DNA of 39,173 bases from Kiritimatiellia bacterium (GTDB lineage: Bacteria; Verrucomicrobiota; Kiritimatiellia; RFP12; UBA1067): contig JAEDMC010000002.1 in NCBI GenBank assembly GCA_016303225.1, forward strand, positions 1 to 39,173, read 5' to 3'. The position numbers and the translations under genes were made by a program. Positions within the stretch are counted from its first letter, which is position 1. The number at the start of each line of letters is the position of its first letter. Below the pieces are notes generated by a model. It ran no database searches. It was given only the letters and a program-made list of their open reading frames with translations, and had not been told where the DNA came from. Positions 4,317 to 34,500 of this stretch are shown here, piece by piece.

Positions 4317-7295
4317 TTAAAGAAACCTGCCGGTGACAGAATCTTTGCAGGCCCGGATTTTCGGCACCGGACCCTCGCAAACGAGATTTCCGCCCTTGTC
4401 ACCGCCACCGGGGCCAAGGTCGATGATCCAGTCCGCCGAGCGGATGACGTCGAGGTTGTGCTCGATGACGACAATGGTATTGCCCTGGTCACGCAGCTGC
4501 AAAAGGATCTTCATGAGCTTTGCGACGTCATCAAAGTGCAAGCCCGTCGTGGGTTCGTCGAGCAGATAGAGGGTCTTTCCCGTCGAACGCTTGGAGAGCT
4601 CCGTCGCCAGCTTGATGCGCTGCGCCTCGCCGCCCGACAAGGTCGTCGCCGACTGCCCGAGCGCAATGTACCCGAGCCCGACGTCGACGAGCGTCTTCAG
4701 CTTCCGCGCCAAGGACGGCACCTTCGCGAAGAACTCGTAGGCCTCGGCAACCGTCATCGCAAGGACGTCGGAGATGTTCTTGCCGCCGTAGGTGACCTCG
4801 AGCGTCTCCGCATTGAACCGCTTGCCGCCGCACTGCTCGCAGGTGACGTAGACGTCGGGCAGAAAGCTCATCTCCAGCTTCTGCACGCCGTCGCCCCCGC
4901 ACACCTCGCAACGTCCGCCCTTCACGTTGAACGAAAAGCGTCCGGCCGTATAACCCCGCGCCTTCGCCGCCTCGGTCAGCGCGAAAAGTTCGCGGATCTC
5001 GGAGAAAAAGCCGACATAGGTCGCCGGATTCGACCGCGGAGTCCGTCCGATCGGCGACTGGTCGATCTCGATCACCTTGTCGAAATGCTCCATGCCGGTC
5101 AGCTTCTTGAACTTGCCCGGCTTCTCCTTCGATCCGTAGAAGCGGTTCATCAGCGCGGGCTTGAGCGTCTCGTCGATCAAAGTCGACTTGCCGCTTCCGC
5201 TGACCCCCGTCACGACCGTGAACGATCCGACGGGAATGTGCGCCGTCACGTTCTTGAGATTGTGCTCGGAAGCGCCGGAGAGGGTGAGACAAGGGAAGGA
5301 CTTGAGACTTGAGACTTGAGACCCGAGACCTTGTCTTCCGTCTAAAGTCTCACATCCTCTCCCCCTAACGTCTTCCGTCTTGCGTCTAAAGTCCTCCCCG
5401 ACCCGCTTCCGCCCCGTCAGATAATCTGCCGTCAGCGACTTCGCCTTCAAAAGCCCCTTGAAGTCGCCCTGATACATGAGCTGCCCGCCTTCGCGTCCGG
5501 CCCCGGGACCGAGGTCGACGATCCAGTCCGCCGCGCGCATCATCTCCTCGTCGTGCTCGACGATGACAACCGTGTTGCCGCGGTCGCGAAGCTCCTTCAA
5601 CGTCGCAATGAGCCGCTCGTTGTCCCGCGGATGCAGTCCGATCGTCGGCTCGTCGAGAACGTAGAGGACGCCCGTGAGGCCCGACCCGATCTGCGTCGCG
5701 AGGCGGATGCGCTGCATCTCGCCGCCCGACAGGGTCGCCGCCGCCCGGTCCAAGGTCAGGTAATCAAGCCCCACGTCGATGAGGAACTGAAGCCGCTTCG
5801 TAATCTCAGTCAATATGTCGCGAAGAGCCGAGAGACGATTTGAAGGACTTGAGACTTGAGACTTAAGGCCCTGTCTTCCGTCTAAAGTCTCATGTCCTTC
5901 ACCCTTAATGTCTTCCGTCTTCCGTCTAAAGTCCTTTCCTCCCCCGAGTTCCCTAAAGAACTCCAGCGCCTCGCCGACCGGCATCGCCATCACTTCACAA
6001 ATCGTCTTGCCGGCGACCGTGGCCGCGCGGGAAAACTCGTTCAGGCGCGCGCCCTTGCAGGCGGGACAGACCCGGTAGCTCTGATACGCCTCGTACTTGG
6101 CCCTCGTCTCCTCGTCTTCCGCCTCCTCGAGCCGCTTCTGCAGAACCGCGAGGACGCCCTCGAACGGCTTGTCGACCGAACGCCACGGCAGCACGAGGTC
6201 GTCCTTGAACCCGTGCATCAGGTCGTGGCGGAATTTCGCCGGCAGCTTCTCGTAGGGCGTCGACAGCTTCACCCTGTACTGCTTCGCAATCTGCTCCAAG
6301 AGCGCGTTGTAGTACATGATCGCGTTATGTCCCGCCCTTCTCCACGGATGAATGCATTCGCGAAGCGGAAGCGACTTGTCCGGCACCACCAGGTCCTCGT
6401 CGAAATAGTAGAGCTGTCCCAAACCCCCGCACGTCGGACACGCCCCGAACGGCGAGTTGAAGGAAAACGACCGCGGCTTCAGCTCGTCGAAGCTGATGCC
6501 GCAGTGCGGACAGGCATTAAGCTCGGAGAAGGTTTGGGAAGTTTGGGAAGTTTGGGTGGTTTGGGAAGTTTGGGTGGTTTGGGTGGTTTCGAGCGTTTCG
6601 ACGTTAAGGACGCCATTGCCGACCTTGAGGGCAAGCTCCACCGAATCGGTGAGGCGCGTACGGTCACAGGGAAGGACCAGCCGGTCGACGACGACGTCGA
6701 TCGTGTGCGCCTTCTTCTTGTCCAGCTCCGGAACTTCTTCGAGGAGATACGTCTCGCCGTCGACCCGCACGCGCACGAAACCATCGCGCCTTAGCTTGGC
6801 GAAGACCTCCTCGTGCCGGCCCTTCTTGCCCTTCACGACCGGAGCCAAGATCAAGATCTTCAAACCTCCCAAACGTTCTATCGCCTCCACGATCTGCTCC
6901 GCGCTCTGCCGCGTCACCTCGCGGCCGCACCTCGGACAGTGCGGCGTTGCAATCGAACCGTAGAGGATGCGCAGGTAGTCGTGGATCTCAGTTACGGTCG
7001 CCACGATCGAGCGCGGGTTCCCGCTCGTCGTATGCTGCTCGATGGAGATTGCCGGCGAGAGCCCCTCGATCTTCTCGACGTCTGGTTTCGCGAGCCGGTC
7101 AAGGAACTGCCGCGCGTAGGCGCTTAAGGACTCGACATACCGCCGCTGTCCTTCGGCATAGAGCGTGTCGAACGCGAGCGTCGACTTGCCGCTCCCCGAA
7201 AGCCCTGTCACGACCGTCAACGAGTTGCGAGGAATCGTGACATCGATCCCCCGCAGGTTGTGCATCTTCGCACCCGTTATAACGATATCGGACAT
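4317..7295 (-). CDS. uvrA: Excinuclease ABC subunit A (UvrA), 992 aa, carrying three in-frame repeat-derived insertions
   Basis: ATG at 7295. GLSGSGKSTLAFDTLYAEGQRRYVESLSAYARQFL is nearly identical to E. coli UvrA as I recall it. Two Walker A motifs (GLSGSGKST, GVSGSGKST) and two LSGGE signatures are present. Zn modules are CPHCG..CPTCGG and CEVCGGDG..CEQCGG. Confidence 0.97.
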   Translation of the reverse strand: MSDIVITGAKMHNLRGIDVTIPRNSLTVVTGLSGSGKSTLAFDTLYAEGQRRYVESLSAYARQFLDRLAKPDVEKIEGLSPAISIEQHTTSGNPRSIVATVTEIHDYLRILYGSIATPHCPRCGREVTRQSAEQIVEAIERLGGLKILILAPVVKGKKGRHEEVFAKLRRDGFVRVRVDGETYLLEEVPELDKKKAHTIDVVVDRLVLPCDRTRLTDSVELALKVGNGVLNVETLETTQTTQTSQTTQTSQTSQTFSELNACPHCGISFDELKPRSFSFNSPFGACPTCGGLGQLYYFDEDLVVPDKSLPLRECIHPWRRAGHNAIMYYNALLEQIAKQYRVKLSTPYEKLPAKFRHDLMHGFKDDLVLPWRSVDKPFEGVLAVLQKRLEEAEDEETRAKYEAYQSYRVCPACKGARLNEFSRAATVAGKTICEVMAMPVGEALEFFRELGGGKDFRRKTEDIKGEGHETLDGRQGLKSQVSSPSNRLSALRDILTEITKRLQFLIDVGLDYLTLDRAAATLSGGEMQRIRLATQIGSGLTGVLYVLDEPTIGLHPRDNERLIATLKELRDRGNTVVIVEHDEEMMRAADWIVDLGPGAGREGGQLMYQGDFKGLLKAKSLTADYLTGRKRVGEDFRRKTEDVRGRGCETLDGRQGLGSQVSSLKSFPCLTLSGASEHNLKNVTAHIPVGSFTVVTGVSGSGKSTLIDETLKPALMNRFYGSKEKPGKFKKLTGMEHFDKVIEIDQSPIGRTPRSNPATYVGFFSEIRELFALTEAAKARGYTAGRFSFNVKGGRCEVCGGDGVQKLEMSFLPDVYVTCEQCGGKRFNAETLEVTYGGKNISDVLAMTVAEAYEFFAKVPSLARKLKTLVDVGLGYIALGQSATTLSGGEAQRIKLATELSKRSTGKTLYLLDEPTTGLHFDDVAKLMKILLQLRDQGNTIVVIEHNLDVIRSADWIIDLGPGGGDKGGNLVCEGPVPKIRACKDSVTGRFL
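5295..5395. repeat. Family-1 heptad-structured palindromic element, copy a, in frame inside uvrA (encodes EDFRRKTEDVRGRGCETLDGRQGLGSQVSSLKS)
   Basis: Sequence: gaaggacttgagacttgagacttgagacccgagaccttgtcttccgtctaaagtctcacatcctctccccctaacgtcttccgtcttgcgtctaaagtcct. The termini aaggacttgagacttgagac and gtcttgcgtctaaagtcctc form an imperfect inverted repeat. Internal 7-bp periodicity is visible (gacttga x3; cgtcttc/cgtcttg/cgtctaa). It is about 85 percent identical to copy b. Edges are approximate. Confidence 0.8.
5842..5935. repeat. Family-1 palindromic element, copy b, in frame inside uvrA (encodes KDFRRKTEDIKGEGHETLDGRQGLKSQVSSPS)
   Basis: Sequence: gaaggacttgagacttgagacttaaggccctgtcttccgtctaaagtctcatgtccttcacccttaatgtcttccgtcttccgtctaaagtcct. 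Pairing of the 20-nt ends gives 16/20 Watson-Crick pairs. The UvrA segment between EFF and RLQFL is 31 aa longer than in E. coli UvrA as recalled, which matches a 93-nt insertion. Confidence 0.8.
6532..6603. repeat. In-frame 9-bp tandem repeat (about 8 units) inside uvrA, encoding VETLETTQTTQTSQTTQTSQTSQT
   Basis: Units are gtttgggaa, gtttgggaa, gtttgggtg, gtttgggaa, gtttgggtg, gtttgggtg, gtttcgagc, gtttcgacg. The tract lies directly upstream of the CPHCG Zn module, in a loop that is about 12 aa shorter in E. coli UvrA as recalled. Confidence 0.9.
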
Positions 7296-8919: not shown

Positions 8920-9477
8920 TTACTTTTCTTTTAACCAATTTACAAACTCTGCGACCTTGAACTTCAGTTCTTCGGCAGTTCCGTCGTTCTCGATCACGTA
9001 GTGGGATTTTGCGGCCTTCTCCTCGACCGGCATCTGCGCCTTCAGTCGGGCCTCGGCCTCCTCGCGCGTGTAGCCGCGCGTTTCCATCATGCGCGCAACT
9101 TGCGTCTCCCGCGCAGAACGGACGCAACATATTATATCATAATCTGCGTCCCAGCGGGTCTCGAAGAGGAGCGGGATGATGGCTACACGAAGGACCTTAG
9201 ACTCTAGACGTGAGACTAGCCCGCCTTCCGTCTCTCGTCTAAAGTCCTGAAACGCCTGAATCTTCCTCTTCACTCGCGGGTGGATACGCGCCTCGAGAGC
9301 CTTGCGCTTCGCCTCGTCGGCGAAAACCTCCGCGGCAATGCGCTTGCGCTCGGCCGGATCGGGAATGAGTTCATGCACGACGTCGTCAGCGTCGATCGTC
9401 TCGATGCCGAAGTCGTTGAGGAACTTCGCGACCATCGACTTCCCGCACGCGATTCCGCCTGTCAGCGCGATTCTCAT
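8920..9477 (-). CDS. coaE: Dephospho-CoA kinase (185 aa) with an in-frame family-1 repeat insertion
   Basis: N-terminal P-loop MRIALTGGIACGKS, DADDVVHEL, IHPRV, IIPLLFE. ATG 9477-9475 overlaps the TGA (9479-9477) of the upstream gene, read as TGATG. Confidence 0.9.
   Translation of the reverse strand: MRIALTGGIACGKSMVAKFLNDFGIETIDADDVVHELIPDPAERKRIAAEVFADEAKRKALEARIHPRVKRKIQAFQDFRRETEGGLVSRLESKVLRVAIIPLLFETRWDADYDIICCVRSARETQVARMMETRGYTREEAEARLKAQMPVEEKAAKSHYVIENDGTAEELKFKVAEFVNWLKEK
9189..9248. repeat. Family-1 palindromic element, short copy c, in frame inside coaE (encodes DFRRETEGGLVSRLESKVL)
   Basis: Sequence: gaaggaccttagactctagacgtgagactagcccgccttccgtctctcgtctaaagtcct. It has the same end words, orientation and reading frame (DFRR-K/E-TE) as the uvrA copies. 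It sits between IHPRVKRKIQAFQ and IIPLLFE, where E. coli CoaE as recalled is about 15 aa shorter. Confidence 0.75.
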
Positions 9478-12233: not shown

Positions 12234-12313
12234 TGGAACAATTCCTCCTCAATGACTCATCTACCCTAACAGACTTCGCGCAAAACGATTGCGCCAGAAT
12301 CTCATCTGACCCT

Positions 12314-12393
12314 TTAGCGATTAGCATTTAGCGGTTAGTTATTAGCTTTTCACGCTAACCGCTAACCGCTAAGAGCTAATAGCCAAGAGCTAA
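12314..12393. repeat. Family-3 heptad palindrome: five TTAGCnn heptads, a short centre, then six nnGCTAA heptads in inverted orientation, directly 3' of the secretin stop
   Basis: TTAGC/TTAGT words start at 12314, 12321, 12328, 12335 and 12342. GCTAA/GCCAA words start at 12354, 12361, 12368, 12375, 12382 and 12389, an exact 7-bp period. ttagcggttag (12328-12338) pairs with ctaaccgctaa (12355-12365). Confidence 0.85.
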
Positions 12394-12395
12394 TC

Positions 12396-15300
12396 TCAGT
12401 CGGCCGTCGGTGCAGCCTTGACTTCAGCCGCTGCATCCGTTTCCTCGGCATTGACCGTGAGTTCGCGACCGGACGGCGTGATGAGGCGGCCCGTCACGAA
12501 GATAAGGAGGTTCTTCTTGATCGTCTGCTCCGCATGACTGCGGAAGAGGCGACCGATGAACGGCAGGTCGCCGAGGAACGGCACCTTGTCATCCATCGCC
12601 TTGCGCTGTTCGGTGATGAGACCGCCCATGACGACCGTCGAGCCAGGCGTGATCGAGACCTTCGAGTCGATCGAACGGACCGGGAAGAACGGCTGTTCCA
12701 TCGGCGCGTCATACCAAGTCATGTTCTGCGAGCCAGCCGTGGAGAGGTTGTTGATCGCGGCCATGGAGGTGTCGACGACACGCCCGCCAATCTGCGTGCG
12801 GTCATCATCCGTCAGCGGCACGGCGAGAGCCTGGAGGGAGGCCGTCATCGCCGAGATGATCCCTGCAAAGTCCGGCACAGCCGATGCGCTGCCCGTGTTG
12901 CCCGTGAACGGGATCTTCATGCCGTAGTTGTGCCAGATCGGCTCGTCAACGACCTGCGGCTTGAGTTCAAGGTCGATCGTACCGCCGTTCGCCTCAGAAT
13001 AGGTCGGCGTGACGTCGAGGATGACGCCGACTTCGCGCATCGTGAAGTTCTGCGGCTCGACGACGGCGAGAATCGCGGACTGCGAGCTGCCCGAGTTGCT
13101 GCCGCCAGAAGACGAGCCGGACGACTGGAGCTGCACGTCGTAGTCCTGCGGGTAGATGTACTCGACGACGACCTTGATGACAGCGTTCTCGCCCGACTTC
13201 GTCACGACCTTCGGGGCCGAGAGGAGGTCCGTGTCGCTGCGCTGCGAAAGCATGTGCAGGATCAACGAGAGGTCCGCCTGACCGAGAAACGCGTTCACAC
13301 GCATAAACTGGTCGTTGTTTGAGAGACCCGAACCGGAGACATGGTTGCCGACGTCAGAGAGATAGCGGTTGCCGCGGTTGTATTCAGAATCGGTGCCGCC
13401 GAAGGCATTGATGCCAAGATTGCGGTTGCCGCCCACATCGCGGATCAGACGGCCGTTTCTGGAGCTGTACGGCACATTGCGGGAATACGAATCCGTGAAG
13501 TTTCCACCACTCGTCCAGTTCTTGGTCGACATCGTGTCGGTAATGGAACTCGTGCTCGTGATGTTAGGCAACGGCTTACCGTTGCTCGTAGCCAAGTCCG
13601 TATGCGTCTTATCCGTCACCGTTCCAGAATCGTCAAATCCATTGCCAGAGTTTCTCGTCCAGCTCCTGCCACCGCTCTCCGTGCCCCAGGTCGAGCCCTT
13701 GAGGCCAAGCGCCTTCTTGAGCTTGCCGCCGACATTCAGCGAATAGTCGCTGTTCAGGATCCACTCAAAGCCAAGGGAGTTGAGGTCTTCCTGCATCACT
13801 TCGACGAAACGCGTCTCAATCTCGATGAGCTGCGGCTGACCGCCGAGCTCGTCCAGCACTTTCTCGAACTCAGCGAGGTTCTCGCGCGTGTTGCGGACGT
13901 AGAGCTTGCCGAGCGACTTGATGTGCTTGATCGAGGAACCCTCGGGCCACTTGACGCCCATCTGCTCGAAGAAGACCTTCCAGTCGCGTTCCTGATTTTC
14001 CTCACCGCTGTCGTCAGAGGCCCTCTTCGAGCTGTCGACGAAGCCGCCCATCGTCTTGATTTCCTCGGACGCGGAGGAGACGCGCTCGATGAACGCCTCG
14101 GGGACGTTGTACTTGCGCGCCAGGATTTCGGCGGTGGACATGTCCTTCTGCATGACCATGACGACGGAATCGCGGATGACGAACTTGTAGTCGACCGAAT
14201 CGCAGACGAGCTTCAACGCCTCGTAGATCGTGAGGTCGCTCGCGGAAATCGTCGGAATCGGCGCCAGCCCGTTGCCGGACTCGGTGGCGTCAACCACATC
14301 GTTGCTGGAGAAGTCGTCCGCCTCCTCCGTGGCCGCGGCCTGCGACTTGATGGCGCCCTGCGGCGTCTTGAGGTAGAAGTTGAAGCCGCGCTTCTCAACC
14401 GGAATCTTCGGGTCGTCGTAGTCCTTCGACGCGGTGCGGAAGAAGTCCACCGCCTCGATGATCGTCGCCGGCGGCTTGAACGAGATGGTCGGCAGGCGAA
14501 TCGTCTTCATGCGGCGCTCGATCTCCTGCTCGACCGTGCGCTCGGGATCGTCACCCGTCGACGCCTTGACCGTTTCGGAAGACGAGTCCTTCAGCTGCGC
14601 GGCATTGGGCGCGTAGACCGGACGCCACCGCTCGTCGACGTCGGCGATCATGCCGTCGCGCGCCGCGATGCGCTCGCTCTGGAGAATGACCTTGCGCTTG
14701 CGCTGAATCTGCTCGCGCAGACGAATCGCCTCGCGGTTGTACTTGTCTTTCTTGAGGACGATCTCGCACTCCTCCGCAGCCTTGTTCAGGTCCTTCACCG
14801 CCAGATACTGGCTGCTGCGCCGCAGGTGCCGGCGAATCTGCTCGCGCTCCTTCTTGTATTCCGTATCATTCCGGCGGTGGAGGTTCTCCGCCACATCCGT
14901 CTCCTGCTCGGCGCCGGCAGCTTCCGCATTCCAAAGCTCCAACACGCGACGGGCCTTCGGATGACGCATGTCAATCGCCTGCTGAATGCGCTTGTAGGCC
15001 AGCGCGCGACGACCGAGGTCATACTCCTGCAACGCCGCACGATAGAGACCCTCGGCAATTCCCAGATCGCACTCCTTGCGGAAAGCCTTCGAGGACTGAC
15101 GGTCGTTCAGGAGCTTGAGCGCAAGACCGTAATGACGGACGGCCTCATCATACTCCTCGCCCGCCATGTTCTTGCGCGCCAGATCGATTTCACGCTTGGC
15201 CTGAACATCCAATGCCTTGCGGCGGACCAGCTCCGTGTTGCGGATGTTCTCGATGAGTTCGGCATCGCTCGGCGGAACGGACGGGGCCACGTTGGCCTTC

Positions 15301-20084: not shown

Positions 20085-20124
20085 TCTAACAGCTAACCGC
20101 TAAAAGCCAAAAGCTAAAAGCTTA
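20085..20124. repeat. Family-3 heptad array (six nnGCTAA-type heptads), single arm, overlapping the pta stop codon
   Basis: tctaa, gctaa, gctaa, gccaa, gctaa and gctta start at 20085, 20092, 20099, 20106, 20113 and 20120, an exact 7-bp period. The words, including the gccaa variant, match the right arm of the 12354-12393 array. Confidence 0.8.
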
Positions 20125-21255
20125 CTTCGTCTGCGCCTGCAGCATCGTCACCGCGACGGTCGCCACGATGTCGTCCGCCGAGCAGCCGCGCGAGAGGTCG
20201 TTCATCGCCTTCGCGAGACCCTGCAGGTTCGGACCGATCGCGTCCGCGCCGCCGATGCGCTGCGCGACCTTGTACGCGATGTTGCCGGCCTGGAGGTCGG
20301 GGAAGATGAAGACGTTCGCGTTGCCCTGGATCTCGCCGTTCGGGTTCTTCTGCTTGCCGACGGACGGCACGATCGCCGCGTCGAACTGCATTTCGCCGTC
20401 CATCTTGATGCCCGCCTCGGCAAACTTCGGACGCGCGAGCTCCACCGCCTTCTGCACCTTCTCGACGAGGTCACCCGCAGCGGATCCCTTCGTGGAGAAC
20501 GAGAGGTACGCGACGCGCGGCTCGTTGCCCGTCAAGTCGCGGTAGCTCTGCGCCGTCGCGAGACCGATGTCCACGAGCTGCTCGGCGGTCGGGTTGGGAA
20601 TGACGCCGCAGTCGCCGAACGCGAGAACGCCGTCGCCCGACTCGGTCGGGGTCTTCAAGTCGATGATGAAGCACGAGCTCGCCGTCTTCACGCCCTTCTG
20701 CGTGCCGAGCGTATGGAACGCCGCGCGGAGCATGTCGCCCGTCGAGGCGATCGAGCCCGCGACGAGGCCCTGAACCATGCCCGTCTTCACCATCATGCCG
20801 CCAAAGTAGATCCGCTTGGTCGCCAGCGTCTTCTTCGCCGCCTCAAAGTCGATCAGCTTCTGCTTCTCGGCCGGCTTCTTGGCTTCCTTGGCGTTCCACG
20901 CCTCATGATAGACCTTCGCCAGGTCGTCAAGCAAGGGAGAAGCGGCGTCCCCGCCGCTTGTGCCAGAAGCGGACATTCCATCTTTCTCAAGCGGCGAGGA
21001 CGCCGCTTCCCCTTTCTGGAGCGTCTCCCCCGTCGTGTAGTCGATCGCCTGGATGCCGAAGTCGGCGAGCTTCTTGCCGGCCTTCGCCTCGGCGTCGGCG
21101 ATTTCCGCCGCGGTGCCGAGCACGATCGGCGTCGCGATCTTGCGCTCCACGAGCGCGCACGCGGCGGTGATGACGCGGGCATCCTGTCCCTCGGGGAGGA
21201 CGACCGTTCCGTTGAGCTTGGAAGCCCGTTCGATGATGTTCTTGATTGCGTTCAT
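20122..21255 (-). CDS. pta: Phosphate acetyltransferase (377 aa) with an in-frame double-hairpin repeat insertion
   Basis: ATG at 21255. Motifs VVLPEGQDARV, SFSTKGSA, DGEMQFDAA, ANVFIFPDLQAGNIAYK and GPNLQGLAKAMNDLSRGCSADDIV align with B. subtilis Pta as recalled. Confidence 0.93.
   Translation of the reverse strand: MNAIKNIIERASKLNGTVVLPEGQDARVITAACALVERKIATPIVLGTAAEIADAEAKAGKKLADFGIQAIDYTTGETLQKGEAASSPLEKDGMSASGTSGGDAASPLLDDLAKVYHEAWNAKEAKKPAEKQKLIDFEAAKKTLATKRIYFGGMMVKTGMVQGLVAGSIASTGDMLRAAFHTLGTQKGVKTASSCFIIDLKTPTESGDGVLAFGDCGVIPNPTAEQLVDIGLATAQSYRDLTGNEPRVAYLSFSTKGSAAGDLVEKVQKAVELARPKFAEAGIKMDGEMQFDAAIVPSVGKQKNPNGEIQGNANVFIFPDLQAGNIAYKVAQRIGGADAIGPNLQGLAKAMNDLSRGCSADDIVATVAVTMLQAQTK
20931..21020. 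repeat. Family-2 double-hairpin element, in frame inside pta (encodes about GEAASSPLEKDGMSASGTSGGDAASPLL)
   Basis: Hairpins are aagcggcg-tccc-cgccgctt (20940-20959) and aagcggcg-agga-cgccgctt (20989-21008). The flank ctcaagcggcgaggacgccgcttcccctttctgg closely matches ctaaagcggcgagacgccgcttctcctttgtcgg at 39117-39150. B. subtilis Pta as recalled lacks about 30 aa at this point. Confidence 0.75.
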
Positions 21256-21276
21256 GATAAGCTGTCTTTATTTTTT

Positions 21277-21325
21277 CTAGATGCTCTAGTTGTTCTAGAA
21301 CTTCTAGGGCTTCTAGAACAACTAG
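21277..21325. repeat. CTAG nonamer array (six CTAGnnnnn units) containing a perfect 15-bp inverted repeat, between the ackA stop and the pta start
   Basis: CTAG starts at 21277, 21286, 21295, 21304, 21313 and 21322, an exact 9-bp period. ctagttgttctagaa (21286-21300) pairs perfectly with ttctagaacaactag (21311-21325) across a 10-nt loop. Confidence 0.9.
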
Positions 21326-22471: not shown

Positions 22472-22520
22472 ATCTTTCAAAATCTTTCAAACCTCAAACG
22501 TCAAACCTCAATTCAAGCCT
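22472..22520. repeat. Short direct-repeat tract (10-bp and 7-bp words) in the 58-bp gap between the giant gene stop and the ackA start
   Basis: atctttcaaa occurs twice (22472-22491), followed by the heptads cctcaaa, cgtcaaa, cctcaat, tcaagcc. Confidence 0.6.
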
Positions 22521-22523
22521 TCT

Positions 22524-25500
22524 TTACTGTACAATCTCCACCTTGTAGAAACCGCTGTTGAAGTCGACGCCGGCCAGCGGCACCTCGATCCGCTCGGTCA
22601 TCGTCGAGCCGTCAATCGTCACGGTCTCGGTCTTGACCGGATCACCCCAGTTCGCGGTGGCTAGGTTCTCCTTGCGGTAGACCTTGATCTCCACTGTCGT
22701 CGAGGTCGGAAGCTCGTAGATCGGCGAGAACAGGTAGCCCGCGATCGAATCGGTCGCCTTCGCGCCGATGGTCAGGATGACCTTGCCGTTCGTGCCGTTG
22801 CCCGCATCGACCACAAGCGAGGTGATCTTGACTGAGTTCGGCTCGATGTTCTTCTCGACCGCGCGGCGGATCGCGTCTATCGTCGACGTGTCGGTATCGC
22901 CGCCGATACCGAGCAACAGCCCCGCCGCCTCGAAGTTCTCGAACAACGTCAGCGTGGCGCCGGAGAGGAAGCGGGAGATGCCGGCCTTACCTTCAAGGAT
23001 GCCGTCATAAACGGTCTTCTTGAGGATAATCCGTCCCTCTGGATCGACCGAGGCGTCAGAGCGTCCGATCTCGTACTTGTCCGGATACTGGTACTCGTAT
23101 GCATCAGGCACCCAGTCACTGTCGGTGTCGGCATCCTCGATGTAAAGGCCGACGATCGGCGCAAGCTGGTTCAGCTTGACGGTGACCGGTTCTTTCACGT
23201 CTCCCCACGACTCCCACGGATCCTTCTTGAAGTTTCCGTTCGAGTCGATGTAAGCGCGGATGTAGTAGGTGCCGCTCTTGAGCCCGATCAGGCGTCCGTT
23301 CGCCCGGATGTCGGTGGCGTCCGTCAGCGCAAGCTTGTTCGTGACGAAGCCCTGCGCCGCAGGATCGCCGCTGAAATCGGGGCTCGTGAACGCCTGAAGG
23401 CGAACCTTGCCCTTGATCTCCGCAAGATTCTCGCACTGGCCGAGCACCGCCTCGGGCCCCGTGTACTTGACGGCCACGTCGATCGAGGAGTAGCCGTTGT
23501 CGCCGGTCTCCTGCTGCGTATCGACGGACGTGGAGAACGAACTGGGATCAGACCACACGTCGCCCGTAATCTTGGCGTTCGGCTTGAACTTAGCGTTGTA
23601 CATCGCCACGCGCCACTGGTAGTTGCCGGCCTTGGCGAAGACCTGGCCAAGCGACGTCTGGTCGCCGGCATAGATCGGCGCGGTCCAGACGAAGTTGCCG
23701 CTCCTGTCCTGCGCCGGCGCACGCATGACGTCAGATGTCCAGACAAGCTTGTTCAAGCTCGTATTGACCACCTGGATCCGGAACGCCGTATAGGACGAAC
23801 CGAAGCGCTTCGCATACGCTTCCTCGTCCGGCATCGACCAGACAAAGGTCGGACGCGATCCGTGGAGGACGGCTCCTTCGCGAAGTCCGATGGCCTTCGG
23901 CTTGGACCAGTTGCGCTCGAAGCGACGGGTGACGAGCAGCGGCTTGGCCGCATCGGAATCGTCGGACGCGCCGGAGGAAGAGCCCGACGACTCGCCCTCG
24001 GAGGCCAGCAGCGCCGTCACTCGATCGGAAGCGTTCGTCTGGTTCTTGCGCGTGAAGCCGACAGGTCCGTCGCCGAGCACGACGAGGTAGGACATGTTGG
24101 TGACCTCGTAGTGGTAGCCGGCGAGCGGCGAGGCGACCTCGCTCTTTAGGTACTGCCAGTCGATGTCGAACTCGTCGCTCGAAAGGAAGTCGGCTTCGCT
24201 GAAGCTGTCGTCGACGCCCCTCGTGAAGTCGCGGTCAAGCACGACGCGATTGGTCACGCCGCAGCTGTAGGTGAAGAACCCGTCCACCGCATAGCGGACG
24301 ACTCGGACGCGCACGGATTCCTTCTCCGGCAGCGTCAGCTCGAGGTTGAGCCCGCTGAACGTGCTCGAATCGGACGCCAGATTGCGGCTGTCATATTCGC
24401 CATACGTCTCTTTGTCAAAGTTGCTGGCCCGGTCGCTGATGCCGGTCCAGATGTCGACACGCGGCGTGATGGCGCTCATCGTCGTGAGGTCGATCCTGAG
24501 CTTCGCGCCATCCCAGCCGACGTCCACGTCGCGCGCGACACCGAACGGCTCGCCGGGCGTATACTCGCCGTTGCCATCGGAGTCGACGAACGCCACGAAG
24601 GTGTTGAGACCCTCGCGGACGTACCCGCCGCTGAGGCTCGACACGCTGCTGCCCGCATCGGAGAGGTAAAGCGTCTGGTTGAACGAGCCGAGCGTCGTGC
24701 AGGAGCTCCAGGTCACAATCACATAGCTCTGCTCAAGATTGAGGAGATCGTAGGTCGAATCGTCCTTCTCCTCCTGCTTCGCCTCGCCACCCTCGCCTTC
24801 GGCCACCGACTCGGTGTCGCCGAGCATCATGCCGTTCATGCGCTCCGCGTCGAAGTTGACCGTGACCTTTCCGGTCTTGTAGTCGACGGTGCCCACGGCC
24901 TGCTCGCCGGCGATGACGCCGCCGATCGTGTAGAGCACGCCCTCGCGGTCCTGCGCCTTGTAGTACCACTTCGCGTAATCGGGATCGCCGATCGACAGGT
25001 TCTCGATCTCGCCGTACTGGTCGAGCTTGGCGACGCAGTAGCTGAGGTCCTTGAAGGCAATCCGCACCGAACCGTGCTGGATCGCGCCCGGCCCGAGGTT
25101 GAACGTCCGCATGCCGTTCGGCTTGAGACCGACGTACTTCTGCGACGTATTCACTCCGACGGACGCCTGTTCTTCGGAGTTCCCGAGGTGCCAAACCGCA
25201 TCGGCCTTACCGGTCATGTTCGGATCGATCTTCTGGCTCCACGCCTTGATGACAACCGGTGCCGCGGCATCAGCCACGCCGGAACAGGTCAGGAAGGTCT
25301 CGATGCACGGCTCCGGATAGGCCGCGAGCACGTAACCGTCGATGCCGACGTCGGCCTCCGTCTCGGGATCCGTCCCCGCTTTAGCCTCTGCCCAGTTGGA
25401 CCAGCCGTCGCCGTCGTCATCGCGCGACGGATCGTAGGCGTAGCGATTGGCGGAGCCCGGATACGCGCTCTCCCAGATGTCGTTCACCTGGTCGTGGTCG

Positions 25501-28500
25501 GTGAAGATCTCGCCGACGTAGAGGTCGCCCATCTTGCGGAAGTAGTCGATGCAGTACCCATCCGTCTTCGGGTTCCTGGGATCGAGCTTCGCGTATCCGA
25601 ACACTTCGCTGATCAGGTACTCCGCGTAATTCGAGAGACCATCGCCGTCGGCGTCCTTGCCCGCGTCATCGCCCTTGAGGCAATACTGGTAGGCGTAGTA
25701 GTCAATGACGCCGTCGTTGTCGGTGTCGAGATTCCACGGATCGGTCGGCAGGTGTCCGCCGTCGTACTCGTCGAGCAGCGTGAGGCCGTCACCGTCCGGC
25801 GAAGCGAGGCGCGCGTCGTTGAAGTTCCACGGGCTGATCTTCGCCTCGGCGAGCGCGCAGCTGCCGACACCGTTGGGGCCGAACATCACGTAGAGCTCCC
25901 AGCCGTCGGCGATGCCGTCCTTGTCGTTGTCGGGATCGAGCGGCTTGAGGGTCAGGTCCTTCCACTGCTGGCCCGGCGTCAGATTGAGGTTCATCGTCTC
26001 CTCGCTCGCGAGGCCGGCCGCCTCGAGGTAGCGCACGAGCAGGTACTTGTCGAGCGCCGTGAACGCCTTCGAGTGCTCGCCCGCACCGGTCGCAACGTCC
26101 GGCTCGAAGCCGAACGCGTCGTAGACCTGGCCGTGCACCAAGACGACCGTGCCCTCGCCGACCTGCGCGACGCGGTAGAGCTTGCCCGCTTCCGCCACGA
26201 GCGTGACGTTCGTGCCGAGGCCGACGCGGGCCTGCAGCTCACCGCCGACGCTGACCTCGTAGGTGTAGGTCTCGAAGAGCGGCAGACCGACCGCCGTGTC
26301 GCCGCGGACCGGCTTCTTCGCCACGTCCTCGCCGAGCACATAGACCGTGACGTCCGCCGGATCGTCCGTGTTCTGCACGGTGACGAGCGTCGCCTCGACC
26401 TCCGCATAGGCCATCCAGTCGCCGTCCGTGACCTCGTCGGCATCATAGAAGCGCGGATCCAGCCCCGCAAACTCCATCTCCCAGCCGTCGGGCATGCCGT
26501 CGCCGTCGGTGTCCCACAGCGTCGAATCGGTGCCGAAGCCGTTCTCCTCGTCGTCGGTGAGGCCGTCCTTGTCGCCGTCCAGCGCGCCGGAGCTGTCGCC
26601 GCCGCCGGTGAACTTCTCGGACTCGAGACAGTCGGGGATCTCGTTGCCGTTCAGGTCGCAGTCCTCGATGTAGATCGTGCAGGTCGGCACCTGGACGAGC
26701 GAGTCGACAATCCCGACGCCGACTGGGTTGTAGATCGCCGCCACGCTCTTGCCGACCGAATTGACATAGCCCCAGCTCTCCCAGTTGTCGCGCTTGCCGT
26801 TGTTGTTCTGGTCGATGTACGCACGGAGGTACACCGTGCCCGGCTCAATGCCCTTGAGGAACGCGTTCGTCGTCGTGATGTCGGTGATGGAGTCAATCGC
26901 CGCGACGTCCGCGATGCGCGTACGCGCCACCGGCTCGCCCGTGAAGTCGGCGTTCTCGAACGCCTCCACGACGATCATGCCCGCGAGGACGTTCGTCGGC
27001 CCGTAGTAGCGGACCGCCGCCGCCACGCTGCCGTAGCCCGTCGCGAACTGCGCGTAGCGGTTCTTGTTGCCGACGTCCATCTGGAACTTGCCGAACTCGC
27101 TCCAGCACGCCGGGTCGGACGTGTCGTTGAACTTCGCGTTCATCAGCGCCACGCGCCAGACGTAGTTCGAGCCGTCGTGGAAGACCGTCGAACCGTTCGT
27201 CGTCACCGCGCAGTCGGCGTAGAGGGCCGGCGTCACCGTGTAGGCGTACTCCCCGACGCCAAGGCCCTGGCGCGCCGGCAGAATCCGCACGCCCGAGTCC
27301 CAGACCTTGTCGACGCCGTTCGCCGCGAAGACCTGGATCTCATAGGCCGTCATCGTGTCGTCCGAGCTCGAGAACGCAAAGGTCGGACGCGCCGCGTAGA
27401 CCGGCTTGTCCTGCGCCGGCGCCTTCACGACCGGCTTCGAGCGCTGCGTATTGAACTGCCGCGAGAAGCAGCCGACGACGCTGTTCGAGGTGCTGCCGTC
27501 GGCACCCTTCGTCACGCGCTCGACCGTATAGCCGACGGTGCGGATGTCCTTGAGCTCAAGACCGAGTTTCTCCGTCGCGTCCGTGACCAGCCACTTCCAG
27601 TCGAGGTCGCAGACGTTGCCGCTCAGAATGTCCGCCTCGGTGAGATACGCGCGATCGTCCAGCACCACCGTGCGCGTCGCGAGCTGCCGCTGCGGCACCG
27701 TGACGTCGTTGATTTCGGACTCGCCGTTGATCGTCACGCGGCGGATCACGAACTGTGCCTCGCCGCTGCCGCCGCCAAGCGACTGGCGCGTCAGCGCGAC
27801 GCCCTCGTCCTTCAGCTCGATCGCCAGCTCCGGCACCTTATGCCAGCCGATCTCCACGTTCTTGAGGACGCCGTAGGGCTCGCCGTCGCTCCACTGTCCG
27901 TTGCCGTCGAGGTCGAAGAACGCCTCGACCGTGTTGAGGCCTTCCTTCACGCGGCCCTTGCCGACCACCTGACCCTGGCCGAATTCCTGCGTGTCGGAAA
28001 GCCAGACGGCCTGCGGCCAGTTCTCGCCGATGTGCGAAGCGTAGGTGACGCGCAGGATGCTGCTCCCGAGCTTGTCGCCATCTTCGTCGCTGACCGCGAG
28101 CTTGCCCGTGTCAAGGTCCCACTCGCCGGTCCTGAGGTCAATCGTGCCGATCTCCGTCGCCGTCGCGCTGTGGATGATCTTCGCCGTCGTGCCCGCCGCG
28201 TCGCTCACAGAAGTCGCGAACGCCGTCCACTCGAGCTCGCCGCCCGTGAGCTCGATGTGCGGATACCGGAGGAGATACCACTTGTACTCCTCGAACGTGC
28301 CGCTGGAGGCGACACCCTGCGGGACCTCCTCGTACCACTCCCAGCTCCAGGTGTAGGTGCGGTCGCTGGAGGTGAGCGCCTTCTCAAAGACGACGGAGCT
28401 CGGCTGCACCGAACCGGGGCTCATGAAACCGCGCATGACGGTCTCCTCGCGGAAGCCGCCGACGAACTTCGTCGCGCCACCGGCCTCGTGCGAAACGATG

Positions 28501-31500
28501 AACGTCGCATCGACGCGCGGCGAGATGCCCGTCCAGGTGCGGACGACGAGCGGAACGCCCTTGACGTCCTGCGCACCGTAGTAGTAGGGCCGGATGCCGA
28601 TCGCCGGCTCCGGATAGCTGACGCCATGCATGTCGTTGTCCATGTAACGGTCGATGAAGTCGGCGACGTAGTTGCCGCCCCAGAGCGCCGCGCGGCACTC
28701 CGCGAAGTTCGACCAGCCGTCCTCGTCCGCGTCAAGCTGCGGATCGTAGACGCCGGTGTTGACGAACGTGTTCTTGTACTGCTTCTCCCACCAGTTTTCC
28801 ATGAAGTCGTGGTCGGTCGCGATCTCGCCGAGGTACTCGTGCGAGTTGAAGTGGCGATGGATCTTGCCCTTCGCGTCGACCGTCACGTTGCCCGGTATCG
28901 CGTCCGCCTCCGCCGGACCCGGCAAGAAGTAGTCGACCACCAGCTGGTCCTTGCCCGAACGCGCCTGCGTCGGGTTGAGGAGCGGGAAGCCGTTGTCGAT
29001 GCCGTACGGGGCCGAACCGAACGAAAGCAGGTATTCGGCGTAGTTGGAGAGGCCGTCGTTGTCGGAATCGTCCTCGGCGCCATACTGCGCGACGCCCCAG
29101 AGGTTCTCCCACCAGTCGGGGATGTTGTCGCCGTCGACGTCAGCGGTCGAGGCGTAGGCCGAATCGAGCGTGCCGTCAGGCTGCAGGCCGCGGGCGAGGT
29201 CGATGAGGTAGGCCTGGTAGGCCGCCATCTCGACGCCGAGGTAGTTGATCGCCGTATCCCAGTTCAGCGGAATCTCGGGATCGAGGTCCGGGCAGTAGTT
29301 CTCGCGGGCATACTCCTCCCACCAGTCGGGAAGTCCGTTGCCGGCCGCGTCGACCTGCGTCTGCTCCCAGGCGTCGGCCGGCGAGCCGTCGTCCCACATC
29401 TGCGGACAGGTCTTCGCGTACGCGCCGCCGAGCGGCAACAGGTCGGTCGTGCCGATGAAGCGGCTGCGGATGTCGTAGCGGTACATGTTGAGGATCGGCT
29501 CGTAGGTGTCGCCGCCCAGGTTGAAGAGCCGGTTCAGGGTGAAGAGCTTGACGTAGCGGTCAACCCAGTAGTTGGAGCACGGATACGGCATCGCATCGTT
29601 CGGGAACACGAACTTGTTGACGCCGTTCGTCATCGCCGGGGTGTAGTACCCGCCGAGCTGTTCGGAGAAGAAGAAGTCGTCAATGCAGCTGCCGTCCATC
29701 ACCGGCAGGTGCGAGACCGTGTTCTCGATCCACGGCACGACGCGCGCGTCGCTGTAGACCGTGCTCCTCAGGCCGCAGCTCTCCCACCAGCCGACGCCGA
29801 TGCCGCCCTTGAACTTGTAGGAGCCGGCCTGGCCGTCCTTGAGACCGCGCGGATCGGTGAGGCCGTGCGTGTTCATGTCGGGGTTGCGCGACGAGAGGTA
29901 GTCGTTCTCGGCCTGCTGCGCGACCGCCTTATCGAAACCGCCCGGCAGCTTCGCGACGTCGGCCGCGTTCACCGCGCCCGGCATCGTCACGAAGTTGTAG
30001 TGGTGCAGGAGCTCGGCCGGCAGCATCGCCTGGCCCGAGGCGTCGTTGCGCGTCGCACCCTGCAGCCAGGACTGGTAGACCGTCGTGCGGTTCGCCTCGA
30101 CGTCCGCAAAACTCATGCGCGAGCGGTAGTTCGACAGAATCTCCGAACCGGAGCGCGCGCCGTCCCAGATGCGCACTTCGTCGACATAGCCGTTGAAGTA
30201 CTCGCCCATGTTGGCGAACGACTCGACGTGCTCGCCGTTGCGGACGAAGTACGGATAGAGCGGCACCATGCGGTCCACGGTGTTCTTCGTGTGCTTCGGA
30301 CGCGCGCCGACGTAAAGCGCCACCGCCCGACCGCCGTACTGGTATGCCGGGAAGCGCGAGGGATCCGTCGGATCCTGTCTGATCTGCGTGACGCCATTCG
30401 CCGGAATGAGAGAGGTCGGCTCCTGCTTGCAGAGATCGCCGTTCACGTAGAGCTTCAGCGCCTTGCCGTCGTAGGTGAGGGCGACGTGCGACCACTTGGC
30501 GAGCGGCAGCACGAGACCGTCGACGCGCATGCAGCTCAACGGCTGGTTGAGACCCGACTGGATCGAGTCGTTGTTGTCGAACATGCCGTAGACGCGGCCG
30601 TCCGCCGCGAGGCCGATGCGGAAGTTCGCGCGAATGGCGCCGCCCGCCTTCGTGATCGCATCGCCACCGTAGTAGGAGGAGCGCTCGATGATCGTCTGGT
30701 CGGCACCCGTCTTCTCCGGCCTGACCCACGCCTCGACCGTGAACTGCTTCAGCAGGTCGAGGGCGTCGACGCCGCGGTACTGCAGGTCACGCGACATCAC
30801 ATACGCGTCCTTGCCCGGGAAATACATCGCCTGACGGCGGTCCGGATCGCTGAAGTTCAGCGGCGAGGACATGGTCTTCACCGTCTTGACGATCTCGCGG
30901 CCGTCGGGCTGCCAGTCGTTGTCGGTATCGTAGCCTTCATTCTCCTCGAAGGAGAAGAGGTAGGCGGAATTCGCCTTCTCCATGGCGACGAGGTAGTAGT
31001 TCTCGCCCGCGATGCCGACCGCGTTCGGGTTCAGCCAGAACGGCAAGACGGCGACCGTCGAATCGACAGCATAGTACTGCGACACGTAGCTGTTCGCCTT
31101 CGACGTGTCAGTCATCCACAGCGGCGTCGGGTCGGTGTGGCTCGCCTGCGGACTCGCCTGATTCGCGACAATGCGCTCGTCGTCATTGCGGAGGCCGTCG
31201 CCGTCGGGATCGGCCGCCCAGCAGCCGATCGCCCACGGATAGAGCACCGGGTCGTATGCCATCGGCGCGGTGATCGGCATCTTGCGGTTGCTGGTCGGGA
31301 TCTGGGCGTGGAACGCAAGATAACGGTTGTAGTCCGGATGAGTCCACTCGTTCCAGTAGGCGTTGTAGAAGACCGGCATACCATAGGCCTTTGCAATCAC
31401 GTCCTTGCTGCCGGCCGCTTCGGGATCGGCGCCCAGGAGCGGGTTGAGCCCGTGGAAGAGTTCGTAGAAGTCGTCCATGCCGTCGCCGTCGGAGTCGGCC

Positions 31501-34500
31501 TTTTGCGGCGACGTCGAGACATACTTGCCGTACACCGCCGGACGCATGTAAGTCTTCCAGTCGATATACATCGCGTTGTAGTGGCAGACGATGCGGTCGA
31601 AGCCGTAGGTCACCGGCGCCATGTAGCCGAGCGCCTCCCAGCCCTCGTCCGTCCACGGATGGCTGTACCGGAAGTTGATCGCCTCGCCCGGATGCGCGGC
31701 GAGCCACTCGGCGTCGTTCATGTGCTTCAGGACGAAGTCGGCCTCCGACCCGAGCAGGAGGTTCGTCGTCACCGTCACCGTGAAGTTCGTGGAGATGACA
31801 TGCGTGTACGGGTTCTCCGTCACCACCATCGCGTTCGTCTTCGTGTGGATGCTGAGGACGTCCGTGTCATACCACGTGGTCGCCGCCTTGAGGCAGAATT
31901 CGTGCGCGCTCTGCATCATCGGCGTGAAGTCGAGGAAGTTCTGCTGATGGTACGGCCCCTCCTCGAGGACACGGCCCATGAGCGGGGTCGAGATGTCGTC
32001 GTAGCGGAAGTGGCGGACGGCCTGGACGAGGTATTCCTGCCAGTTCTGGAGTCCGTCATGGTCCCAGTCGACGTCGCGGTTCGTGCCGGTGAGCGGGTCG
32101 TAGGAATGGCTCAACCTGGCCGGCATGTCCAGCGGATCGGTGTAGGCGTCGCCGCCCCACGTCGCGTCCATGCCGTCGATGATGATGACGCCCGTAAGCG
32201 ACTTGCCGAGGATGCCCGCGGCGAGACGGCGCGCGTCGAAGAACGTCGGGTCTTCGCGGACGCTCGCCCACATTCCGGCGCCGACGCCCGGCGGCATCTC
32301 GTCCGGCTTCACGTAGTTGTTCGCCGCCATGTCGTACGGCAGGCCCGCGAACTGCATTTCCCACGCGTCGGGCAGGCCGTCGAGGTCGGTGTCGGCCGTG
32401 AGCGGGTTCATGCCGCCGCCGCGGATGCAGGTCGAGTTGTCGTCGGTCGGCTGGCCGTAGATGAAGCTCAGGCCCTCGAGAGCCTCGCTGCCCTCGTCGT
32501 CCGCATAGCCGATGACGACCCAGCTGCTGCCTTCCTGTCCGTCATAGACGCCGTCGGCGTCGGTGTCGCCGTTGTCCGGATCGGTCGGGAAGAACTTGTT
32601 GTACCAGCCCTTCGCCTTGCCCGGATGGTTCTTGTAGATCGACTCGCAGCTCTTGTAGGCGTTGCACGAGTCGGTGCCCGCGAACTCCGCCGCATAGGTG
32701 AGGACATCGTCGTCAATGTCGGTCGGCAACATGAGCCTGGACGGTCCCTCGGAGATCGGATCTTCCTCTTGGCCGAAAGCCGTGCACGGGTTGCGGTAGG
32801 TGTAGAGCTCCCAGCCGTCCGGCACGCCGTCGCCGTCCGTGTCGGCGCCGTGCACCTGGATGACGCCCTTGTCCGGCTTGCCGGCTTCCTTGAAGGCCTG
32901 CGCGATCAGCTCGGCGAGCTTGCTGTTCGCCGACTCGACGTCGTTCGTGCCGGCCGTCCCGACGTCGTTCGTGCCCGACGCCTCCGCGTACACCGACGGC
33001 ACCGTGGTCTTCGAGGCGATGTAGCCCCAGGTGTCGCCGGACTCCTTGATCTGCTCGCCCGGATAGACGATGCTGAAGAGCGAGCGGTAGCGGCCGAGCA
33101 GGTACTCGTCATACGCCGCGTACGGGATCGTGTTGATCGACTTGCCCGTCGCGCCCTCGCCCTCCTCCCAGCGCGAGCCGACGAAGCGATTCTGGTTCCT
33201 GAACCAGCCCGTGCGCGGATCGAACCCGAAGATCGAACGGACCTGGTCGTGGAGCATGATAAACGGAATGGGATAATCGCCCTTCATCGGACCGCTCTGG
33301 TAGATCTTCTCGCCCGCCTTGAAGGTGCGGGTCACCCACCAGGTCTCCAGCGACCACTTCGGGTTCTGCGTGAAATTGTAGTACCAGATCACCGGATTCT
33401 TGACCGGATCCTGCGGCATGTCTTCCTCGCGACCATAGGCCGTCATCGCGCCGTCCTGCCAGAACGGTCGCACCACGAGCGCGCGAATCGTCTTGGTCTG
33501 CGTCATCACGTAGACACCCGGTTCGCCAGGGGCCGGACGGAAGTCCCAGTCCTCAATGAGCTGCCCGCTGACGTCGAAGTACCAGTTGGTCTGGATCTCG
33601 AAGACGCCCCTCTCGATCTCGACCTCCTCGCCAATGGCTTCAGTGCCGAAAAGGCCCAGCGTCGTGAACGCCGCCATGAAGTCGCCGTCGGCGTTCGCCG
33701 CCTTGTCGCTCGTGCTCTGCGGGTCGAGGCCCATCATGACCTCCCACGCGTCGCACATGTGGTCGCCATCCGTGTCCCAATGGCAGGGATTCGTGCCGAT
33801 CAGGTATTCCTCGTAGTCGGAAAGACCGTCGTTGTCAAAGTCGCCCGGCGCCTTCTCGCCGCGCGGCTCGCACGGATTGAAGTGAGCCTCGACCTCGGTG
33901 TTGGTGATGGCCGTGCCGAAGATGAAGCTCTTCGCGTTAAAGCGCTCGAAGACATAGGACTGGCCGTTGACGGGCTTGGCCGTACCCGCCGGCACGGTCA
34001 CGTGGGCGAGGTACCAGAAGTAGTATTCCCAGCCGTCGGAGAAGTGGTCGCCGTCGGTATCGTCCGTCGTCGGATCCATCCGGACGCTCTCGCCGGTCGG
34101 TTCCGGGCTCCAGCGCGACAGGTCAGGCGTCCAGAACGGATCGTCGTCCGCCGGCGGATTCGCCGGATCATAGTTCGCGTCGTTCGCGATCAGCCACGCC
34201 TTCCACGCGGCGAGCTCGTCCTTGCTGAAGTCGGCGTCGGACTTGAGGTCGTCCTTCGCGTTGAGGCCCGGCTCGAAGCCGCGCAGCTCGCGGACCGTCG
34301 TGAACGCATGGCCGATCGGCGCATAGCTCTTCTGAGACGCCTGGACGAGCGCCATCTCGCCCTCGACCCTCCAGACGCCCGGCAGGTAGTCCTCGTCGGG
34401 GTTGGTCTTGGCGAGGTCCTTGAGGTCCGCCACGTTGCCGACGGCATCACCGTAGATGAGCTCCAGGAGGTTCACGCCCGCGCCCCTCCAGACCTTCATC

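Follow-up and report, generated by a model that had tools for sequence, protein, structure and literature searches.

Hairpin-forming palindromic elements read in frame within uvrA and coaE of a Kiritimatiellota gut bacterium: a probable lineage-specific family resembling Rickettsia palindromic elements

The stretch of DNA analysed here, 39,173 nucleotides of contig JAEDMC010000002.1 (assembly GCA_016303225.1; hereafter the window), carries three copies of a short palindromic repeat within genes, two in uvrA and one in coaE, the gene for dephospho-CoA kinase. It is probable (roughly 0.8) that these repeats are members of a family specific to one lineage, whose small, non-coding elements form hairpins, resemble Rickettsia palindromic elements (RPEs) and are similar in kind to miniature transposable elements with inverted repeats (MITEs) and repetitive extragenic palindromes (REPs). 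The family is dispersed within and between genes of a sister metagenome-assembled genome (MAG), rumen MAG RUG13365, one of its sites is filled in that genome and empty in the window, its full in-frame copies all use one reading frame, and the uvrA and coaE inserts coincide with gaps in alignments to solved structures.

Anatomy and reading frame of the element

An earlier, sequence-only reading of the window had placed two in-frame copies in uvrA, about 85% identical, with 7-bp periodicity and an imperfect terminal inverted repeat pairing at 16 of 20 positions. Both copies lie where it put them (copies A and B, Table 1) and share a frame, with an identity of 83% over 99 ungapped nt (5306-5404 versus 5846-5944) or 84% by MAFFT. 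Tandem Repeats Finder recovered period-7 arrays at 5299-5322, 5369-5387, 5846-5864 and 5910-5927, and AAGGACTTGAGACTTGAGAC set against the reverse complement of GTCTTCCGTCTAAAGTCCTT, read directly from the sequence, again gives 16/20 pairs. The third copy, in coaE, had been missed, and of the palindrome with terminal inverted repeats that had been described the palindrome stands, while its architecture is not that of a simple terminal-inverted-repeat element and consists of a left arm, right arm 1, a spacer and right arm 2.

The building block is an arm of ~27 nt, (GTCTNNN)x3 followed by GTCCT, which occurs singly, as inverted pairs in left-right or right-left order, or as a left-right pair with a spacer and a second right arm (86-100 nt). 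On the plus strand of copies A and B, the left arm begins with AAGGAC and continues in TTGAGAC heptads, being one heptad longer in copy A than in copy B, right arm 1 is built from GTCTNNN heptads with a terminal GTCC and is followed by the short non-repeat spacer, and right arm 2 ends in CGTCTAAAGTCCT; the end sequence of the element is given as AAGGACTTNAGAC. A hidden Markov model (HMM) of the arm matches both ends of every full copy. With up to three mismatches AAGGACTTGAGACTTGAGAC has 4 matches (0.00 expected), and with up to two mismatches CGTCTAAAGTCCT has 8 (0.44 expected), counts reached in neither case by any of 100 shuffles. Because the full copies (n = 4) have a common non-repeat spacer and a common arm order, we regard them as copies of one composite unit and not as independent slippage products or microsatellites. 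At 0.46-0.55, the G+C content of the element is below the ~0.62 of the window.

The left arm and right arm 1 can pair into a hairpin of ~57 nt, and the left arm can alternatively pair with right arm 2. DNA folding of copies A and B gives -17 to -18.8 kcal/mol (z = -3.2 to -6.5), and across 9 copies pairing holds in 81% of cells, compared with 23-44% when the partner is slid. Compensatory changes in the hairpin did not exceed controls, the covariation score being reached by 79 of 500 shuffles, and a selected hairpin structure is for this reason not claimed. Rfam returned no gathering-level match in the window, and its only matches were 24-bit resemblances to animal miRNA hairpins, for which the thresholds are 77-90.

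The single frame shared by copies A and B is translated as DFRRKTEDVRGRGCETLDGRQGLGSQVSS and DFRRKTEDIKGEGHETLDGRQGLKSQVSS, which in UvrA gives (G)EDFRRKTEDVRGRGCETLDGRQGLGSQVSSLKS at aa ~634-667 for copy A and (K)DFRRKTEDIKGEGHETLDGRQGLKSQVSSP at aa ~454-484 for copy B. The coaE copy is in frame, with the orientation and frame of copies A and B, and encodes QDFRRETEGGLVSRLESKVL. In copies A and B only this one of the six frames is open and the other five contain stops; the coaE copy and two copies of RUG13365, at uvrA site C and in rsmE, have one additional open frame each. Five full in-frame copies were examined (A and B of uvrA, the RUG13365 uvrA copy C, and those in coaE and rsmE), and each of them uses this frame, which we call DFRR. 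It would yield a hydrophilic loop of 20-35 aa with the pattern DFRRxTED...ETLDGR...LKSxVSS, in which a spacing previously put at x(3) is in fact x(4). The peptide looks non-repetitive (DFRRKTED / ETLDGRQ / LKSQVSS) because 7 = 2x3+1 and successive heptads are thus read in different frames. For copies consisting of an arm only, a different frame or a reversed orientation can also be used, as RTLDGRRKT in the tail of a methyltransferase and as RLPSSVSSP in RsmE loop 1.

Table 1. Coordinates of the genes, element copies and related sites in the window
Feature	Position	Strand	Remarks
uvrA	4317..7295	minus	992 aa, intact open reading frame (ORF); two element copies and one variable-number tandem repeat (VNTR)
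Element copy A	5296..5395	minus	100 nt; in uvrA; left arm 5297-5324, right arm 1 5332-5358, spacer, right arm 2 5368-5395
Element copy B	5843..5935	minus	93 nt; in uvrA; left arm 5844-5871, right arm 1 5872-5898, spacer, right arm 2 5908-5935
uvrA tandem array of 9-nt units	6530..6593	minus	(T/S)QT units, aa ~236-256; in frame, unrelated to the element
uvrA site C, empty in the window	6864..6869	minus	Gly143-Gly144 codons; from protein and DNA alignment with locus L010
coaE (dephospho-CoA kinase)	8920..9477	minus	185 aa; Pfam PF01121 on the identical gene in locus L001
coaE element copy	9191..9248	minus	58 nt, hairpin only; left arm 9191-9217, right arm 9223-9248

Dispersal, filled and empty sites and protein context

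When 185,579 species, each represented by one genome, were scanned for a 21-base motif of right arm 2, a single genome matched, that of the rumen MAG RUG13365, in 6 places on 5 contigs; fuzzy and HMM searches added 6 further sites near these matches. The uvrA of this MAG carries copies at the two sites occupied in the window, A and B, together with a third at site C. Its other copies include a full in-frame copy in rsmE, an in-frame arm-only copy in birA, one in the C-terminal tail of a SAM-dependent methyltransferase, one in an unidentified ORF, one in the rnfA-rnfB spacer with right-left arm order (L008 4554-4613) and one in the macA-macB spacer, and two copies directly follow stop codons. 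The repeat is thus not unique to uvrA, in keeping with the suggestion of the sequence-only reading that uvrA hosts RPE-like repeats tolerated within essential proteins, a suggestion borne out by the dispersed family, the filled and empty site and the location in loops. Motif scans of JGI metagenome contigs and IMG/VR gave no match, nor did BLASTN of the element against plasmid and phage collections, and two concatenated consensus peptides searched against the protein collection gave one word-index candidate and no match.

The uvrA genes of the window and RUG13365 are 92% identical in protein and 88% in DNA. At site C the RUG13365 gene has an insert of 96 nt, or 32 codons, encoding GEDFRRKAEDLKGEGRETLDERPGLRSNVSSP, where the window gene is uninterrupted, and the site lies in the loop opening what we take to be the UvrB-binding domain (domain names as in the 2R6F structure, positions from the PDB alignment). 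An SNF2 helicase gene likewise encodes a 15-aa half-element in locus L012 and none in L001.

Among ~30 clade UvrA genes of 60-79% identity obtained by a metagenome scan, all lack the DFRR element at each of the three sites A, B and C, and the shortest versions of the site B stretch that were compared are 26 residues long, compared with 61 in the window. The element peptide was also not found in UvrA representatives at 50-55% identity or in the UvrAs of the PDB, so that distant UvrAs do not share it; the former come from an exhaustive representative search that yielded mostly duplicated or fused UvrAs with a best identity of ~55% and serve as an outgroup only. The family appears narrow in its distribution, since the arm HMM gave only two weak matches in 764 kb of related clade loci. 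The DFRR family is nevertheless present in RsmE orthologues of 70-83% identity that come from other ENA samples. One RsmE orthologue, 73% identical, is named Candidatus Colisoma equi of the phylum Kiritimatiellota, within the Planctomycetes-Verrucomicrobia-Chlamydiae (PVC) group, and a gene of the Amuc_1100 pilus type (by Pfam) adjoins the locus. Together these two observations point to a Kiritimatiellota host, which fits the PVC type guessed by the sequence-only reading.

A search with full-length UvrA in a collection of 5.8 billion proteins listed 120 matches, all 99-100% identical, a set that is uninformative on relatives without the insert and was used for polymorphism; both inserts are kept in 120 of these 120 variants. 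In the assembly collection, 28 indexed blocks contain the identical 992-aa protein, and 23 contigs carrying it were read; the places shown for it belong to ENA metagenome assemblies, of which two have the label pig gut. Among the same 120 variants UvrA length steps through 983, 986, 989 and 992 aa with the number of (T/S)QT units, and the 9-nt array is thus an in-frame VNTR. Every listed member of the CoaE cluster has 185 aa.

UvrA of the window aligns to solved UvrA structures at E = 0, and CoaE to dephospho-CoA kinases in the PDB down to E = 1.7e-19, and the inserts coincide with gaps in these alignments. Relative to PDB chain 9gxk, UvrA has 31 extra residues, the number counted in the sequence-only reading, at site B, which separates the EFF helix from the helix ahead of the first LSGGE, and ~22 at site A, in the linker from ATPase half I to the Walker A motif of half II, where that reading had also located it. 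In CoaE the insert is an 11-residue gap against 1uf9 at FQDFRRETEGG. An AlphaFold2 model of UvrA built from a 13-row alignment (mean predicted local distance difference test, pLDDT, 80; predicted template modelling score 0.70) has pLDDT below 50 at aa 238-250 (the VNTR), 454-486 (insert B), 637-665 (insert A) and one 5-residue stretch and nowhere else, and each of these segments is bordered by confidently modelled helices or strands. Insertion points A and B are therefore predicted to be loops or linkers compatible with the fold, which agrees with the surface location previously proposed, and by the same model the inserts are probably disordered when translated.

Origin of the inserts and rival explanations

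We propose that copies of the element would have reached new sites either through transposition in the manner of MITEs or through mobilisation in that of REPs, and that in essential genes the survivors would be those inserted in the single stop-free frame and orientation, adding whole codons and landing in a surface loop or inter-domain linker. Selection would in this way have acted as a filter on insertions, and the element would be transcribed and translated as a hydrophilic loop with UvrA and CoaE still working. Copies A and B would have entered uvrA before the split of the window species and RUG13365, and the site C copy would be specific to RUG13365.

Several observations weigh against this account. 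No transposase, RAYT (REP-associated tyrosine transposase) or parent insertion sequence (IS) was identified in the ~150 kb of relevant genomes covered, and no genome-wide RAYT search was made. The filled site C (GGGGG/element/GGCGG) and its empty counterpart (GGGAGG) are compatible with a 4-bp duplication, but if such a target-site duplication were general, adding 4 to the copy lengths (92, 86, 99 and 58 nt) would make up whole codons for no more than two of the four. Retention of the inserts in mRNA and protein is an inference. Finally, the copies are better conserved than passenger DNA should be. Between the window (5296-5395 and 5843-5935) and RUG13365 (L010 4221-4320 and 4768-4860), copies A and B are 99% identical while the flanking uvrA is 84-85% identical and its third positions 67-69%, and in 10 of 10 species pairs the identity of orthologous RsmE copies (84-93%) is higher than that of the flanking third positions (60-79%). 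As to the choice of site, GGGG stands directly 5' of AGGAC in most intragenic copies and in none of the intergenic ones; a G-run as insertion target was considered and set aside, since with no G-run at any intergenic copy survival in Gly-rich loops is more likely.

This conservation speaks for the reading that the copies are functional cis-elements selected at the nucleotide level, as protein-bound heptad arrays or mRNA hairpins, with a mobile origin being secondary. The uvrA flanks differ by 15% and their third positions by 31-33%, the longest identical runs between the two uvrA genes coincide with the element copies, and the RsmE copy lies above its flanking third positions in every species pair. 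Variation in five orthologous RsmE copies is without codon-position bias (7/28, 6/29 and 8/29 variable columns) and is lower in the 4-nt cores (8/48) than in the remainder (13/38). Moreover, A-specific and B-specific differences are kept in both species, so simple gene-conversion homogenisation does not explain the identity. Against this, compensatory changes were no better than in shuffles, sister lineages have repeat families of other kinds, unrelated to this one, in these loops, and full, half and arm-only forms occur at one site. Polymorphism of the insert within the species is raised and not lowered, with 10 of 66 insert residues varying compared with 67 of ~900 elsewhere in UvrA, about twofold, which together with the even spread over codon positions suggests relaxed constraint on the insert peptide. 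The segment between copies A and B is 93% identical, so the A/B identity could possibly reflect a recent recombination tract at ~5250-5940 bounded by the repeats. The evidence is mixed and conservation above that of neutral junk is unexplained, and overall we consider cis function improbable.

The other explanations fare worse. That the inserts are native low-complexity linkers of UvrA, formed by intragenic duplication and replication slippage, would suit the natural variability of sites A and B in the clade and the slippage that does occur here, as heptad number differs between A and B and a 9-nt VNTR lies nearby. It is very unlikely given that the composite sequence, spacer included, is found also in coaE, rsmE, other genes and intergenic DNA, that site C is cleanly filled or empty, and that the element lies below the window in G+C. 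We give still less credence to removal of the inserts before the mature protein, whether as intron-like RNA, by translational bypass or as an intein-like peptide, to which the strong hairpin within coding sequence is the sole pointer. The frame in use is stop-free in every full copy with the other five closed in A and B, the insertion at site C measures exactly 96 nt, motifs of inteins or introns are absent, as is any Rfam match, and frame maintenance would not be required if the insert were removed. Repeats are able to cause misassembly, but there is next to no chance that the inserts are an assembly or chimera artefact of a metagenomic contig when the identical protein recurs in so many blocks of the assembly collection and the contigs read from them, all listed variants have both inserts, and the independently assembled rumen MAG has orthologous copies.

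Known systems and other repeats in the same loops

The closest likeness is to RPEs (Ogata et al. 2000), described in PMC10969869 and PMC3184786 as small palindromic repeats of several families, located in intergenic DNA and in frame in unrelated housekeeping genes, with a peptide compatible with the protein fold, and read as selfish DNA tolerated by the host. The element shares with them its dispersal inside and outside genes, a stable hairpin, in-frame presence in unrelated genes (uvrA, coaE, rsmE, birA) and loop sites; this is a likeness of functional class, membership in RPE-1 to RPE-10 is not claimed, and with another phylum and another base composition sequence homology would not be expected. 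It differs in its host, an uncultured G+C-rich gut bacterium of the PVC group rather than an obligate intracellular alphaproteobacterium, in its shorter length of 58-100 nt, compared with ~100-150 nt for RPEs, in being made from iterated 7-nt units and modular arms, and in that different families occupy the same loops of sister species.

REP units are G+C-rich stem-loops of 20-40 nt with a terminal GTAG or CGTC tag (PMC3733652), and they and their compounds, bacterial interspersed mosaic elements (BIMEs) and REP doublets forming hairpins (REPINs), are mobilised by RAYT transposases and are abundant in operon spacers with occasional intragenic units (PMC3733652, PMC2817692, PMC3116915). The element likewise reuses a short unit singly and as hairpin-forming inverted dimers in both orders, left-right in coaE and uvrA and right-left in rnfA-rnfB, but its unit is a non-palindromic (GTCTNNN)3-GTCCT arm that lacks both a tag and a stem of 8-13 bp closing a loop of 2-20 nt. 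Bacterial MITEs of which some copies lie in frame inside genes include Correia/NEMIS, ERIC, BOX, QMITE1 of Coxiella and those of Anabaena (PMC10969869, PMC5896051). Like the element, they are small, end in imperfect inverted repeats, can form long hairpins, show filled and empty sites between relatives and fuse ORFs with host genes, whereas the element has internally periodic arms, no demonstrable target-site duplication and no identified parent IS. Elements of Geobacter metallireducens consist of four tandem heptanucleotides (GGACCGG) in 49 copies within and between genes (PMC2700814); they have another unit sequence, are described there as tandem arrays and putative regulatory sites and not as inverted-arm palindromes, and in-frame peptide consequences are not analysed in that paper.

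Literature searches turned up no report of elements like these from Kiritimatiellota. Housekeeping genes colonised in frame by palindromic repeats are usually treated as peculiar to Rickettsia, and a 2024 review called colonisation by in-frame palindromic repeats outside Rickettsia only "conceivable" (PMC10969869). The comparison supports a new family of a known kind of element, RPE-like and MITE/REP-like, in a PVC-group gut bacterium, and it is well supported that this is a second such system, whose host differs from Rickettsia in phylum and lifestyle. Since sites filled and empty in nature, a series of decay stages from full element through hairpin to single arm and many sampled related species are available, long-standing questions become testable here, namely how such elements move, why they are tolerated, whether they create new protein loops and whether it is as DNA or as RNA that they are selected. 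A practical consequence is that these inserts inflate and diversify the "core" marker proteins of MAGs and can break assemblies.

The same loops recurrently hold other repeats. Other clade UvrAs have different, lineage-specific inserts after aa 142, 208, 239, 450, 632 and 730, several of which are dispersed short-period repeats at the DNA level. In locus L014, sites C and B hold copies of a 40-nt repeat that are 85% identical (5436-5475, 6399-6438), L022 and L026 have an AATCGNN heptad family with the peptide IDESTNRR at three to five sites (L022: 799-854, 1819-1874, 2324-2379), and L040 has a CTCCAAC-based family with inverted arms at sites B and A (6459-6553, 6995-7126). In the RsmE loop VAHPYG-LLAIGPEGG, at least 41 of 120 listed orthologues (P0286-P0405; L011 1953-2048) have the DFRR family, in full (~36 aa), hairpin-only (~26 aa) and arm-only (~16 aa) forms that make up a decay series at one orthologous site. 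The remaining orthologues have at least five other insert types there, for example GADSTRIFANVANARESFAEIRSIREDS (33 aa), GAQSMAIDSNRQQSL, DGVRTIEQSNNPNNRTI and TSQTSQTSRTSRTSL.

It is conceivable, though we hold it unlikely, that in the gut Kiritimatiellota clade lineage-specific palindromic families with periods of 6-9 nt recur in UvrA, RsmE and SNF2 loops as more than junk, through active and possibly targeted insertion or with a cis role. If true, that role might be, for instance, a protein-binding heptad array or an mRNA structure pacing translation at domain boundaries.

Other observations were made at these genes. The distant UvrA P0241 (52% identity) has an unrelated insertion of ~35 aa in the site B loop (window aa ~450-490), which suggests that this loop tolerates insertions in general. 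In RsmE loop 1, RUG13365 has an in-frame 8-nt tandem array, (CATCGGAG)x4, encoding SSEHRSIGASEQ (L011 1555-1590), and a DFRR-family arm in opposite orientation gives the RLPSSVSSP peptide of this loop elsewhere (L094 496-522, L095 273-299, L097 1668-1695). Just after GKT in the SNF2 helicase there are unrelated segments of ~30 aa in L012 (~5230-5330) and L001 (LKSCNVEGLKSSQAPSTSNLQPSTFNLQPLT versus VSRAEAQSRRAGTCGQGNSLCIYTSVGKI), and this loop would be another hypervariable, repeat-like insert site.

Elsewhere in the window, pta (20122..21255, minus strand, phosphate acetyltransferase) contains an in-frame G+C-rich palindrome at 20933-21015 that is unrelated to the DFRR element. It comprises two small hairpins, AAGCGGCG-N4-CGCCGCTT, at 20940-20959 and 20989-21008, its peptide includes ...GEAASSPLEKDGMSASGTSGGDAASP..., and the window Pta has ~42 extra residues at the palindrome compared with Pta in the PDB. 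A similar hairpin lies upstream of a giant gene at ~38604-38660, and the pta palindrome looks like a second, REP-like in-frame family.

All large genes of the window lie on the minus strand, and four of the few non-overlapping intergenic spacers in this gene array are filled by short-period arrays of other families, a TTAGCNN/GCTAANN palindrome at 12313-12405, a GCTAANN half at 20086-20122, TTCTAGANN 9-mers in a palindrome at 21269-21324 and TCAAACC heptads at 22487-22511. Related GTTTGAG arrays occur in RUG13365 (L008 857-960, L009 near 6735-6770). Stop placement in all three frames was considered as a purpose of period-7 arrays and rejected as a general rule, one spacer array having period 9. 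The giant gene (ORF 22524-38603, minus strand) encodes 5,359 aa and has diverged internal repeats in at least six direct-repeat families with a GCCGTCGCCGTCGG-type core, which on the coding strand corresponds to Asp/Gly-rich motifs, and it is probably a giant repeat-rich surface protein.

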